A stretch of DNA of 64,000 nt from Leptospiraceae bacterium. Its GTDB lineage: Bacteria > Spirochaetota > Leptospiria > Leptospirales > Leptonemataceae. The notes under the pieces were generated by a model. That model saw only the letters and a program-made list of their open reading frames with translations, had not been told where the DNA came from and did not search any database. A program made the position numbers and the translations under genes. The stretch lies in assembly GCA_040217195.1 (NCBI GenBank), contig JAVJNR010000006.1, positions 128,001 to 192,000 on the forward strand. Reading direction: 5' to 3'. Positions within the stretch are counted from its first letter, which is position 1. Each line of letters begins with the position of its first letter. Shown piece after piece: positions 8,904 to 13,400 of this stretch.

Positions 8904-9323
8904 TTGTTTCTGCTCGGGCAATGTGTCCTGGGCGTCTCCGGAGATGATACCATAAAGGCTGGAAAGGCGGCATCTCAGATGAACAAAGCCATTACTCTGG
9001 CATTACTTCGCTGCCAGGAAGAGAATGGTTCTCAACGGAGCCTTATTGGTACTCCCCCGCAACCGTGTATTGGAGCCACTGAGAAGCAGAAACTCCTCAG
9101 GAGAGACGATGTTGAAAAATGCATTAATACAATTCTATTCTGGCAGTGCAGCGGTGATATTACTCTTGATTCTTTTGCAATGAATCAGGTAGGGATTGGC
9201 TGTCCCGCGCGAAGTGATGCTTTCCTGTTTAACAATCTGGGGCCTCCATGGCAGGGGCACATTCTCTCTATCTCTTCGGGAGATAACGGAACCGGGGGTA
9301 CATTCTATTTCGCCTGTTTTTAG
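8904..9323 (+). CDS. Cys-rich small lipoprotein, start codon unclear
   Basis: LGQC lipobox and several Cys. The in-frame upstream sequence KKLQYSHLSLTLCIP looks like a signal peptide but has no ATG/GTG. Confidence 0.5.
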   Translation: MFLLGQCVLGVSGDDTIKAGKAASQMNKAITLALLRCQEENGSQRSLIGTPPQPCIGATEKQKLLRRDDVEKCINTILFWQCSGDITLDSFAMNQVGIGCPARSDAFLFNNLGPPWQGHILSISSGDNGTGGTFYFACF

Positions 9324-9709
9324 ATACTGGCGATGACAGTCATTGATTCCGGGATCTCCTCCTGGATTTCATCAATCGGAGGATCCACGATTTCCGGGTC
9401 TCTTATGCGAAAGCACCTGGTAGAGGTATCAGTCTGGGACCGTTGACTTTGAACCTGATATACAAAAACGTAAAGGTCTTCTGAACCTTCCTGTTTCAGG
9501 AGTTGTGCATTATTGGAAATACTGACGTCGTTGGCACTATGATAGGGATGTGCACTGATGGTTCCATGCATCCAGCGAACAATTGGCAGTTTACTCCGGC
9601 CTCTTCCGCGACTAAGGAATAGCCAGGTCTCATACTGATTTTCTGGGTGCCTGTCGAGGGTTAACTCTAAATTTTCCATGAATGATTGCTGCCAATCGAC
9701 AAAGAGCAA
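9320..9709 (-). CDS. Hypothetical protein
   Basis: 129 aa ORF filling the gap, no recognisable motif. Confidence 0.5.
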   Translation of the reverse strand: MLFVDWQQSFMENLELTLDRHPENQYETWLFLSRGRGRSKLPIVRWMHGTISAHPYHSANDVSISNNAQLLKQEGSEDLYVFVYQVQSQRSQTDTSTRCFRIRDPEIVDPPIDEIQEEIPESMTVIASI

Positions 9710-9739
9710 TAAGGGGAGTTGTCTTCTGGAAGGCTAGGC

Positions 9740-9961
9740 TTAAGAAACCATCGAGAATATAGGTTGCGGCTGGACTCCGTTCAAAGCTCCAGAGCTCACT
9801 ACTTGTCCGGTTAAAGAAAAAGGCCCGTGCTGGTTTTGTTCCAGACGGGCCCTGTGTTTGGCATTCCTTTTATAAGTCTTGCCCGATGGTTTTACTTTGT
9901 TGGGTGGTAGGGTCTGTTTTCGCGCCTGTGCGCGAATGACCTTCAAGGTTTCACGCTTCAT
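9740..9961 (-). CDS. Small basic protein, candidate ArfA-like alternative ribosome-rescue factor
   Basis: First 37 aa are K/R-rich and end in KVKPSGKTYKRNAKHR (compare ArfA KGKGSYxRKxKH). An intrinsic terminator lies inside the ORF. Confidence 0.55.
   Translation of the reverse strand: MKRETLKVIRAQARKQTLPPNKVKPSGKTYKRNAKHRARLEQNQHGPFSLTGQVVSSGALNGVQPQPIFSMVS
9813..9851 (-). terminator. Intrinsic terminator inside the ArfA-like ORF
   Basis: Minus strand GGCCCGT-CTGG/AACAAAA/CCAG-C-ACGGGCC followed by TTTTTCTTT. Confidence 0.75.
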
Positions 9962-10481
9962 ATAATAATAGACGGACCTGCGCCGGGAAATTGCAAGATT
10001 TTTTCAACGAATTGCATTATCATGATCGATCATCGAAGATCGAAAATCGATGATCCTTGACCTCTGACTCTGAATCATACCTGCCAGGGATCATTACCTG
10101 CAGCATTCCTGTGTATGTTCGGAAGGAAGTTGGATTCATGGTCTCCTATTGCCGGGGTTTTGGGCCAGCTGAAAACGGAATAACGAACGTCCGACTAATT
10201 GAAATGGCCAGCCCGTAGATTGGGAGTTTTGGCCGGCGATGGGCCCATATCCAGATTCCACCGCTCCAGGCTGAATTTGAATCTATTTTTGCTATTTGTC
10301 CTGGCATGTGTAGATTCGCTTTTTCTTTGTCAGAATGACCTGGATTTTGCATCTGGTTTGAGTTAGTTCCTCGGGGCTCCGGGCGATTTTCTTAGCCGAT
10401 TGATTGTGCAAGTATTGAATCCTTAGTTGTTAATAGGCTACCCGGGGCTGGCATTTCCGTAGTCTTCAGGTCTCACAGCGA

Positions 10482-13400
10482 ATGGTTTCTCCAAAAACAA
10501 AAATTCTCGGAATAGCTCTGGCAGCCATTCTGCTTGGCCCTTCCTCCTCCTGCGTAAATGACTATCCGGACGAGCCGTTCTTACTGTTCAGCCCTCAGCT
10601 TGCCTTCACTCTGGGCGGTGAGGTCCTGGGATTGAATGGTAGTTTGACTCTATCGAATAATGGCACAGATTCTCTGGAAATCAGTTCAGACGGAGAGTTT
10701 CAATTCCCGAATCAGTACGCTTCCGGCAGTCCTTACAACGTTCAAATTACAGACTCTCCCATGAACCAGCAGTGTACTGTTAGCTCTGGAGACGGAGTGA
10801 TGCACGGCAATGTCACCACAGTCTTTGTTGAGTGCGAGGACACCGCAGTAACCATCGACAATATTCAGCGCCCCTATTTAAGCTCCCAGGGTGGAGCGCA
10901 CAATACATCCACTTTTGACTGGACTCCGGAATACACAGAGAATTTCGAGATTCGCATTGGAGCCGATTGTAGTACCGGCGCCCTCAGTACCTGGACAAAC
11001 AACTCCGGAACTACAACTACAGGAGTTCAGCAGACCAGTGGAATTAATCAGACAGATCTTGTGCCGGGCCCAAATACAATTCATGTTTGTATTCTGGACG
11101 GTTTTTCCAATGTAATCGATTCCAACAGCTTTACAATTGTGCGCGATGATGTAAGCCCCACCGTTACGCTTTCAGCGACCACCGGTAGTTTTGATTCTGC
11201 GCAGTCCATCAGTGTTACATGCACCGATTCTCCCAGCGGTTGTAATGCCACTGTATTCACTATTCAAGATGTGGCCCTTCCTGGAACGGCCAATCCGGCC
11301 GATCCAGCTGTTACTACGAATGGAACTCCTACCACAGGTGCCCTTTATTCAGTGCCTCTCAATGCGGCGAATCTTAGAAATACTCAGTTGGAAGTTATAG
11401 CAATTGATCGTGCCGGGAATCGATCTGCCATACAGATCGGGAATTACACCGTTGATACAACCTTGCCTGCTCTGACGATAACAGGGCTTACCAGAGACTT
11501 TATCAGCAACACAGCCGGCGCTCCGTACAACAGTTCGGATATCAGCTGGACTTCCAATCGGTCTAACCTGGATTACTTCATCTGGTACGGTGCCACCGAT
11601 TGCCAGGGTTCCGGAGGGACCTTGATTACAAATGGCACAACAGCCGGTGCAGGCGATACAATTACCATTAATGCGGCAGCCATTCCGGTGGGAGCCCAGA
11701 CCATCACTGTAGCCGAGAGAAACTTTGCGGGTTTTTACGGATGTCAGACCACCAGCCTGACGAGAGACGATACTCCGCCAACGGTGGTGGCCGGAGGAAC
11801 ATCGAACGGAGGGGCAATTGCGTATAATGGTGACATAGATATTCGGCTGAGTGAGCAGATCGACCCTGGCTCCATCTCGGTGGGTGGAGGAGACATGGAT
11901 GCTGAGGCCAGTCTGCCGCCAGTGATTGGCACTACCTCCAACCCGGATGATACAATTCAAATCTATCCCATGTCCAACTGGACAGCTGGCCTGGGTCGCA
12001 CTGTGGATGTTGATGTACGCGATCGGGCGGGAAATCTACTGACCTTGAATTGGAGCCTGGATCTGCCGGATGGAACGGTGGAACCCATGTATGCTGCAGC
12101 ACCTGACTGGAATCAACACATTAGAAATGATGGAAGCTTTATATATGATGCTGCAGGCACAGCCTGCGACGGTAGCGAAACTGGATTCATAACAGCCTGC
12201 CTGCATGGCGGAGAACTTAGAAAAGTGCAGGTTCTTAATGAAACCAGCTGCGCCGGGCTTACGGCCACCGATACCAATGGATGGTTTGAATGGGCCTGTT
12301 ACGATCCTCCCGGGCCGGGGCCTGTGGAAATGTATACAATTCGCAGAAGTAGTTCACTGCGTCAGTATATCAACTTTGGTACCCAGGTCTGGCTGACCAA
12401 TGACGTTAACGTAAGTAATGGATTTAGCACTCCGGCCACGGCCTGGTGGGGAAATCCAATTCAAGCTGTGCCTTCCACCGGGATTAGCATGAATACATCG
12501 GGTGCCATATATGTTACGACTGGTAATGTGACTATGACCGGCGCTATTTCTGCGCTAAGCGACAATGTGTCCTTTGTATCTGCGCCGGGAACATCCATTC
12601 TGACAAATGTGGCGGCTCATCAAATCAGCGTGAACAATCAACGATTTGTCTGGCTCGAGGCTACCATGAATCATATAGATGGTACCGGTTCTTCTTCGGG
12701 CATTTTTATCCGGGATTCTGCCTTTATTACTGTAGAAAACTCTAAATTGGCCAATTACCGTGGCTTCAGCAACACAGGTCAAATTCGCATAATCCATAGC
12801 CGGGCTCTATTGCTACGTAACCTCATCGTGGCCAACAATCCAGGCGAACACGGCATCAGTTTTTATGCAGATACTTCAGACAGTCACCATGTTTGGATCG
12901 ATCGGTCTCGAATCTTCAATAACGCCGCTCATGGGCTCTATTACCGGTCCCAGGGTGCCAATGTAGTTCGCGACATGCTGGTTACGCGCTCCATGATTCA
13001 CAACAACGACGGCGGCGGTCTCTACGCAAACCGGGGGATTGCCAATTCCCTGATTATGAACTCCCTATTTGCCAACAATGGCGGTACCGGCGTAAATCTA
13101 TTTGGCACCGGGCCTTCGGGCGGAAATAATACCATGGTCAACATAGTATCGATCAACAATGCCGGTGGTGGCATAGTGCCCGGCGACAACAGTCAGTTTA
13201 TCAATCTCGGGCTTTCTGACAATGGTGGCGCTGACGTGATGGCACCGGCGGGAACCGGTAATTATTATTCCGGGGAGCTTTATTCAGGTACTACCGGAAT
13301 TGGCGACAATGCGGATGGTCGATGTATCTCCTCCGGAGCCGGTTCAGGCATGGCTAACGATGATGATTGTTCACCGGAAGGGCCTTCCGACCATACTGTA

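Follow-up and report, generated by a model that had tools for sequence, protein, structure and literature searches.

A small gene on the minus strand of a spirochaete genome fragment probably encodes a new alternative ribosome-rescue factor of the ArfA/BrfA kind, which would be translated from a programmed non-stop mRNA and kept low by trans-translation. The fragment, referred to here as the window, is a stretch of 64,000 nucleotides (nt) from a genome deposited as Leptospiraceae bacterium (assembly GCA_040217195.1, contig JAVJNR010000006.1, positions 128,001 to 192,000), and all coordinates given below count from its first letter. The gene comprises 73 codons (9961-9740) and contains, ahead of its stop codon, a predicted in-frame intrinsic terminator (9853-9813). 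This non-stop architecture is very likely functional. A backup rescue factor had been proposed in the first-pass annotation of the window; the computational predictions of that proposal were all borne out, which supports it, and from them we infer the function itself.

By analogy with the characterised factors, the gene would work as follows. Transcription would start at or just upstream of the ATG and would terminate in vivo at 9853-9813. The transcript would end before any stop codon, and therefore every ribosome on this mRNA would stall at its 3' end. As long as transfer-messenger RNA (tmRNA) together with SmpB is sufficient, the nascent peptide would be tagged (ANNEHALAA) and degraded; when trans-translation becomes limiting, the untagged protein would accumulate. 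Its basic Y-x-R-K-x-K-H segment would bind non-stop ribosomes in their empty mRNA entry channel, and its N-terminal part would recruit a class-1 release factor, by analogy release factor 2 (RF2), leading to hydrolysis of the peptidyl-tRNA.

The open reading frame (ORF) encodes 73 amino acids (aa), MKRETLKVIRAQARKQTLPPNKVKPSGKTYKRNAKHRARLEQNQHGPFSLTGQVVSSGALNGVQPQPIFSMVS. Lysine and arginine occur 14 times in residues 1-39 and are absent from residues 51-73; the ORF call and these counts agree with the earlier description of a 73-codon ORF with a basic first part and a non-basic tail. Residues 30-36 (9874-9854, minus strand) form the motif YKRNAKH, from Y30 to K35 and H36, which corresponds to the family signature Y-x-R-K-x-K-H. 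The ORF, its homologues and the pattern of substitution delimit a conserved coding core of codons 1-48 (9961-9818, minus strand). Codons 1-36 are under purifying selection at the protein level: among six sequences of the same genus, the ratio of nonsynonymous to synonymous differences (pN/pS) is 0.10 (pS 0.42, pN 0.041), which is the coding-type conservation on which the first-pass annotation had made its proposal depend. Judged by this conservation, the small gene is real and translated, with its conserved part limited to the first 48 codons. The product is predicted to have about 48-50 aa and a net charge of about +12, with an N-terminal helix followed by an extended basic tail. In an AlphaFold2 model of residues 1-48, with a mean predicted local distance difference test (pLDDT) score of 79, the helix spans residues 3-15 and the rest is extended save for one helical turn at residues 34-36.

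The remainder of the ORF, codons 51-73 and the stop codon TAA (9811-9740, minus strand), is not conserved. Between loci of the same genus, ungapped identity is 0.85-0.99 over nt 1-147 of the gene versus 0.21-0.39 over nt 154-253, and the fall of DNA identity to the random level occurs directly 3' of the U-tract of the terminator. A metagenome contig of a relative aligns to the window over 9815-9963 only. Among relatives of the window's family (f1) with an in-ORF hairpin, the first in-frame stop is found at codon 49 to 87. Codons 51-73 most likely behave as intergenic DNA and are not translated from the terminated transcript.

The terminator is predicted within codons 37-50 (9853-9813, minus strand), where it encodes R37...S49-L50. 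A hairpin and U-tract on the same strand inside the ORF had already been reported in the first-pass annotation, and RNAfold recovers them as a stem of 13 bp in which one C is bulged (5' arm 9853-9841, 7-nt loop 9840-9834, 3' arm 9833-9820), followed by the U-tract UUUUUCUUU at 9821-9813, the first two U of which close the stem. The free energy (dG) of the hairpin alone is -20.7 to -21.9 kcal/mol, and the stop codon of the ORF (9742-9740) lies 78 nt past the end of the stem. A simple terminator scan overlooked the site because of the bulged C. In codons 37-48, which hold the hairpin and the U-tract, pS among the six same-genus sequences is 0.085 versus 0.42 in codons 1-36, about five-fold lower, and constraint on synonymous sites is therefore stronger in the region of the RNA structure. 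Folded in an 81-nt frame, the site has a z-score of -1.61, and 17 of 200 shuffled sequences fold equally well; set against chance as a single instance, the window hairpin is not statistically striking. It is placed beyond chance by its relatives, because the hairpin-plus-U layout is kept in 31 of the 37 related spirochaete loci examined, with 26 different 5' arms among the 30 loci tabulated (e.g., GGGCCCGTCTGG, GGGTCGCTTTT, AAGACCGG..., AAGAGGAGG..., AAAGGGGTATGA, ACTCTATTCTCGAA).

Throughout, a terminator was called where one hairpin with 5 or more pairs and dG <= -7 runs into a stretch with 5 or more U in 8. By this rule, 11 of the 15 loci from the window's family have an in-ORF terminator ahead of their first stop, as do 13 of 15 loci of Leptospiraceae (f2) and all seven loci of three other spirochaete families (f35, f50, f53). 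The stem ends 11-18 codons past the Tyr of the motif in 29 of the 30 tabulated loci, the exception being G283, for which a homologous hairpin was also found, and the distance from the stem end to the stop varies from 3 to 275 nt. From these sequence comparisons, the structure and the placement of the terminator are the conserved feature, the sequence of the hairpin is not, and the stop codon lies outside the conserved unit. Homologues had been expected to retain a terminator inside the ORF while the tail varies, and they do, with the terminator at an unchanged position and a changing stem sequence; the motif, which they were also expected to keep, is retained in its Y-x-R part and mostly in its K-H part. 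Hairpins were compared by per-sequence folds in place of RNAalifold, which recovered only six outer pairs from a MAFFT alignment of 11 hairpin regions because stems of differing length were misaligned. Two Leptospira loci fail the U rule, and their hairpins are evident by eye. A second copy of the gene in one genome (G005, L039 457-624, minus strand) has 56% identity, a weak hairpin (dG -9.4) and KP at the position of KH; it is located about 4 kb from the main copy, convergent with and just 3' of a gene whose product ends like a 1145-aa Ig-like protein encoded in the window. Another relative (G021, L062), which lacks a site passing the rule, has an 8-bp GC-rich hairpin (ACGGTCGG/CCGACCGT) without a U-tract in the end of the ORF. 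The arfA mRNA of Escherichia coli undergoes RNase III cleavage besides termination, and the G021 hairpin recalls the RNase III-cut hairpin of that mRNA.

The setting that the first-pass annotation had presumed for a rescue backup is present in the window's genome, which is 93.7% complete. The genome has a tmRNA (162 bits, tag ANNEHALAA) and SmpB. ArfA was not found in it at E <= 10, and no NFACT_N/RqcH was found either. It has exactly two genes with an RF-1 domain, of which the one with SPF is RF2 and the one with PVT is release factor 1 (RF1); with these two accounting for all RF-1-domain genes, no ArfB-like gene was found. No other known back-up of trans-translation was thus found in the window's genome. 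RF-1-domain genes were counted because the NCBIfam ArfB model NF006718 failed to separate ArfB from RF1 and RF2 in the genomes examined (all at 29-46 bits, cut-off 100). Within the window's family, a third RF-1-domain gene is found in 1 of 14 carriers of the small gene versus 13 of 27 non-carriers (Fisher p 0.014, an overstated value since kin are not independent), and six of six carriers checked from other families have at most two RF-1 matches.

The family of the small gene has members across Spirochaetota. A six-frame search revealed the protein in all six other genomes of the window's genus, with matches that cover residues 1 to 26-59 only and open frames of 28 to 228 codons; four other genera of the window's family also carry it. 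Of 1.84 billion proteins searched, 30 representatives matched a profile built from ten sequences at E <= 1e-3. In the ten-row alignment A1, Y30, R32 and K35 are invariant and H36 is present in at least 90% of the rows. The motif Y and R are present in at least 90% of a 43-row alignment, whose consensus is MKKETLKxxKxxxRKxxxxPPxKVxxSKKxYxRKxKH. A broad profile detected the gene in 59 of the 156 genomes of Leptospirales; the window's family contributes 14 of its 41 genomes to this count and Leptospiraceae 44 of 114. A Leptospira-based profile detected it in all 41 genomes of g24, a group at genus level, and in three of the five of g28; only marginal matches (E 0.017-0.05) were obtained in g22 (1 of 22) and g23 (2 of 24). 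In named records, g24-type sequences belong to saprophytic Leptospira, such as L. vanthielii, L. yanagawae, L. abararensis, L. soteropolitanensis and others. When the phylum was sampled evenly, 67 of the 401 Spirochaetota genomes had a match, spread over 28 of 153 genera, and the homologues anticipated across spirochaetes in the first-pass annotation do exist.

Distant relatives (P0012-P0033, L093, L094) of about 43-79 aa share ...PPNKV..SKKKYSRKxKHK... and come from metagenomes of unassigned taxa and from metagenome-assembled genomes (MAGs) of Nitrospinales. The public runs that contain the window stretch are marine metagenomes. A close homologue from a Leptospiraceae MAG is labelled just 'hypothetical protein' in one source, and none of the look-alike clusters in the Atlas bears a name. 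The window protein belongs to no Pfam or NCBIfam family, a chance-level BcsF match aside, and the 30 relatives match no family in either collection besides sub-threshold matches to DUF7230.

The family would be analogous to ArfA and BrfA, with no detectable homology to either one. In Bacillus subtilis, BrfA (YqkK) is RF2-dependent, and in the available portions of PMC6881298 brfA is described as having an intrinsic terminator within its ORF and as repressed by trans-translation; a cryo-EM model of BrfA is reported there. The window protein resembles BrfA in being small and basic and in having the terminator inside its ORF, with an mRNA of 62 of 71 codons in brfA and about 48-50 of 73 here. It also resembles it in its predicted fold, in which an N-terminal helix (residues 4-17, helix alpha1, in BrfA; residues 3-15 in the model here) precedes a positively charged C-terminal region with KH (PMC6881298, PMC8012679). 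The family described here differs in its phylum, in its shorter length and in having no detectable sequence similarity to BrfA, whose sequence was not compared directly. It is also widely spread among Spirochaetota, whereas BrfA is reported in the same source as limited to part of Bacillaceae.

ArfA (YhdL; PF03889), known from E. coli and the beta- and gamma-proteobacteria, likewise has an ORF of about 72 codons with an in-frame hairpin that yields a non-stop mRNA. Its active product has about 55 aa, with about 11-16 residues after KH, as here, and the C-terminal part of the ORF is unconserved (PMC8012679). The same source gives KH as the sole notable sequence similarity of ArfA and BrfA and describes its binding to a pocket of the mRNA entry channel. 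The N-terminus of ArfA is reported as unstructured (PMC6881298), whereas a helix is predicted here. ArfT of Francisella tularensis is another small, charged, release-factor-dependent rescue factor, from a lineage without ArfA and ArfB; it is not described as the product of a non-stop mRNA in the available portions of PMC8012679 and PMC6514570. Unlike ArfB, the window protein has no RF-1/GGQ domain. A complex prediction of residues 1-48 with the organism's own RF2 gave a median score of 0.31 against a mark of 0.32 in a run without controls, which speaks neither for nor against the pairing. The Pfam family DUF7230 (PF23876) shows a further likeness: 16 of the 30 distant relatives match it below threshold over K-K-x-Y-x-R-K-x-K-H, with a best score of 20.6 bits against a cut-off of 27, and one look-alike Atlas cluster carries DUF7230 in 18% of its members. 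It differs in that neither the window protein nor its genome matches it at E <= 10. A literature search on DUF7230 found no paper that mentions the family.

Several observations weigh against a rescue factor of the ArfA/BrfA kind. The family fails the Pfam ArfA model (PF03889), which matches neither the window protein (E <= 10) nor the 30 relatives (E <= 1), and the family profile found nothing at E <= 10 in a copy of the PDB in which the presence of the BrfA chain is unconfirmed. Alignment A3 compared by hhalign with E. coli ArfA (K-12 record) gave an E-value of 0.013 and a probability of 3.4%; with 14 enterobacterial ArfA sequences, the values were 0.0083 and 4.8%. Both runs align only 23-24 columns and place Y-x-R-K-x-K-H on SYMRKGKH of ArfA, the aligned stretch being PPxKVxx-SKKxYxRKxKH. 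At the level of sequence, the likeness to ArfA is thus one of motif (Y-x-R-K-x-K-H or KH), and homology is not demonstrated. The Leptospira branch and two f50 loci have lost KH itself. In genus g4, three genomes (G034, G009, G028; L063, L067, L069) have products ending in ...KHKKxE(S/T)* and no in-ORF terminator, the ordinary stop of G034 overlapping the ATG of the next gene (ATGA). Ordinary stops without an in-ORF terminator are also found in two of the Nitrospinales MAG relatives (L093, L094). Relatives with a regained stop codon may be constitutive forms. In three loci with a terminator (G018, G013, G026), the stop is located only 3-9 nt past the stem, and some transcripts may therefore include it. 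A ribosome closely trailing RNA polymerase can suppress intragenic terminators, so read-through is possible. Lastly, nearly all of the 114 Leptospiraceae genomes, and all but one of g24, have three RF-1 matches. In two Leptospiraceae checked (G045:C1:2418244-2418537, G042:C1:1943877-1944182), the third gene is a short GGQ-domain ORF of 132-157 codons; it reaches only 40-46 bits on the NCBIfam ArfB model, against the cut-off of 100, and so encodes a divergent ArfB-like protein. The complementarity with ArfB-like genes holds only outside Leptospiraceae, because within that family the small gene and the short GGQ-domain gene are found together in practically every genome.

Part of these observations would fit an ordinary small basic protein, for instance one associated with ribosomes or nucleic acids, with a terminator that merely overlaps the 3' end of its gene. 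Such a protein would end at the stop codon, or else its precise C-terminus would be immaterial, and tmRNA would have no regulatory role. The normal stops of genus g4 and of the Nitrospinales MAG relatives are what this explanation expects, and the stop that follows the stem within 3-9 nt in three genera and at about 20 nt in saprophytic Leptospira agrees with it as well. Weak terminator-like sites near the end of a gene also occur in controls: among 42 long ORFs of the window, five have one 3-120 nt before the stop at dG <= -7, and one does at the stricter dG <= -13, a count that speaks for the non-stop reading. Against the ordinary protein stands the position of the stop over the whole family, which ranges from 3 to 275 nt past the stem with an unconserved intervening sequence, and the terminator precedes the stop in 31 of 37 loci. 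Under read-through, moreover, tails of 20-90 codons would differ wholly between sister species. On balance, this explanation seems unlikely.

A programmed non-stop gene gated by tmRNA could also encode something other than a rescue factor, for example a protein that signals or regulates a different stress response, perhaps by binding RNA or ribosomes and slowing translation. The evidence of architecture fits this equally well, no homology to ArfA or BrfA is detectable, and the co-occurrence with an ArfB-like gene in Leptospiraceae points in the same direction. On the other side, the sole proteins of such a layout characterised in the available portions of PMC6881298 and PMC8012679 are rescue factors. 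The motif Y-x-R-K-x-K-H aligns with the channel-binding segment of ArfA, and the lack of any other back-up found in the window's genome also favours rescue. A non-rescue role is regarded as quite improbable, and a rescue factor remains the preferred reading.

The start of the gene is consistent with a transcript that begins close to the ATG. Promoter-like boxes are present at 9996-9967 (minus strand), with TTGCAA at 9996-9991, a spacer of 18 nt, TCTATT at 9972-9967 and 5 nt to the ATG. No Shine-Dalgarno sequence was found before the window ATG, nor in the loci of the window's genus or of saprophytic Leptospira, and the mRNA may therefore be leaderless in some lineages, the window's genus included. 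In the window's genus and in saprophytic Leptospira (L073, L074, L076-L080), 4-5 nt separate the ATG from a conserved (G)TCTAW box, itself preceded at 18-20 nt by a TTG box. The upstream layout in G021 is comparable (TTGACT, 17 nt, TATTTA, 6 nt, ATG). In other genera, GGAG stands 6-9 nt ahead of the corresponding ATG.

Next on the minus strand comes a gene (9679-9320) that encodes 119 aa from the ATG at 9679, belongs to no Pfam family and is syntenic within the genus only. The divergent upstream neighbour is the gene of the 1145-aa Ig-like protein. Flanking genes are syntenic within the window's genus and not shared between genera; the idea that the small gene stands in different contexts within the genus was dismissed, as tblastx shows syntenic flanks, with the intergenic DNA alone differing. 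A conserved same-strand gene that follows in synteny would suit a leader peptide with a transcription attenuator, in which translation of the small ORF decides between termination and read-through into 9679-9320, and a ribosome on the hairpin would indeed block its folding. Such a role is very improbable: the peptide is conserved across families at a pN/pS of 0.10, genera differ in their flanking genes, and a promoter-like site (TTGAAC, 17 nt, TATATT; 9784-9756, minus strand), called from its consensus match alone, lies in the non-conserved tail between the terminator and the next gene. In addition, Rfam at E <= 10 gave on 9000-10600 only four chance-level eukaryotic or viral matches, none near the gathering score. 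That the gene is a small non-coding RNA, or an ORF that runs across a terminator by chance, as suggested by the shortness of the gene, its label as a hypothetical protein where it is named at all and the missing Shine-Dalgarno sequence in the window's genus, is hardly credible given the coding-type substitution pattern, the start codon and frame conserved across the phylum, and the GGAG before the same ATG in other genera.

Two further observations concern the surroundings. In one RNA library, contigs lie on 9356-9660 only, and the missing cover of the small gene proves nothing. A GATC-rich near-palindrome (…gatcatcgattttcgatcttcgatgatcgatcatgat…) lies at 10020-10060, in the 520 nt that separate the small gene from the divergent 1145-aa gene, and several short metagenome contigs break or fold back at it.

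No paper on such a factor in spirochaetes was found in a literature search outside subscription journals, in accordance with the first-pass annotation, which knew of no characterised factor in this lineage. Trans-translation is a drug target, and whether it is essential in a lineage depends on the back-up which that lineage has. A published survey covered more than 15,000 genomes; its row for Spirochaetota, in the available portion of PMC11633108, gives 108 genomes, 107 with tmRNA, 16 with arfB and 0 in the next two columns; the arfB column is identified here from the stated 58% of genomes, and the zero columns are taken as arfA and arfT-type. So read, the row would leave most spirochaetes without a known back-up. 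All 41 genomes of the saprophytic Leptospira group g24 carry the gene; since this group includes cultivable, non-pathogenic species, the idea is directly testable.

If the proposal is true, a sequence-independent search rule would follow, namely to look for small ORFs of basic character in which an in-frame terminator is conserved and the tail is not. The chances are about even for a broader picture, in which Spirochaetota would own a release-factor-dependent rescue factor of independent origin that converged with ArfA and BrfA on the basic KH segment, the small size and the terminator-made non-stop mRNA. This factor would be the sole back-up of trans-translation in many spirochaetes, including the marine genus of the window; it would probably be leaderless in some lineages, and the variants that regained a stop would be constitutive. 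It would be the third family to use the arfA/brfA principle, from a third phylum and with no homology detected, which would mean that this feedback design evolves repeatedly.

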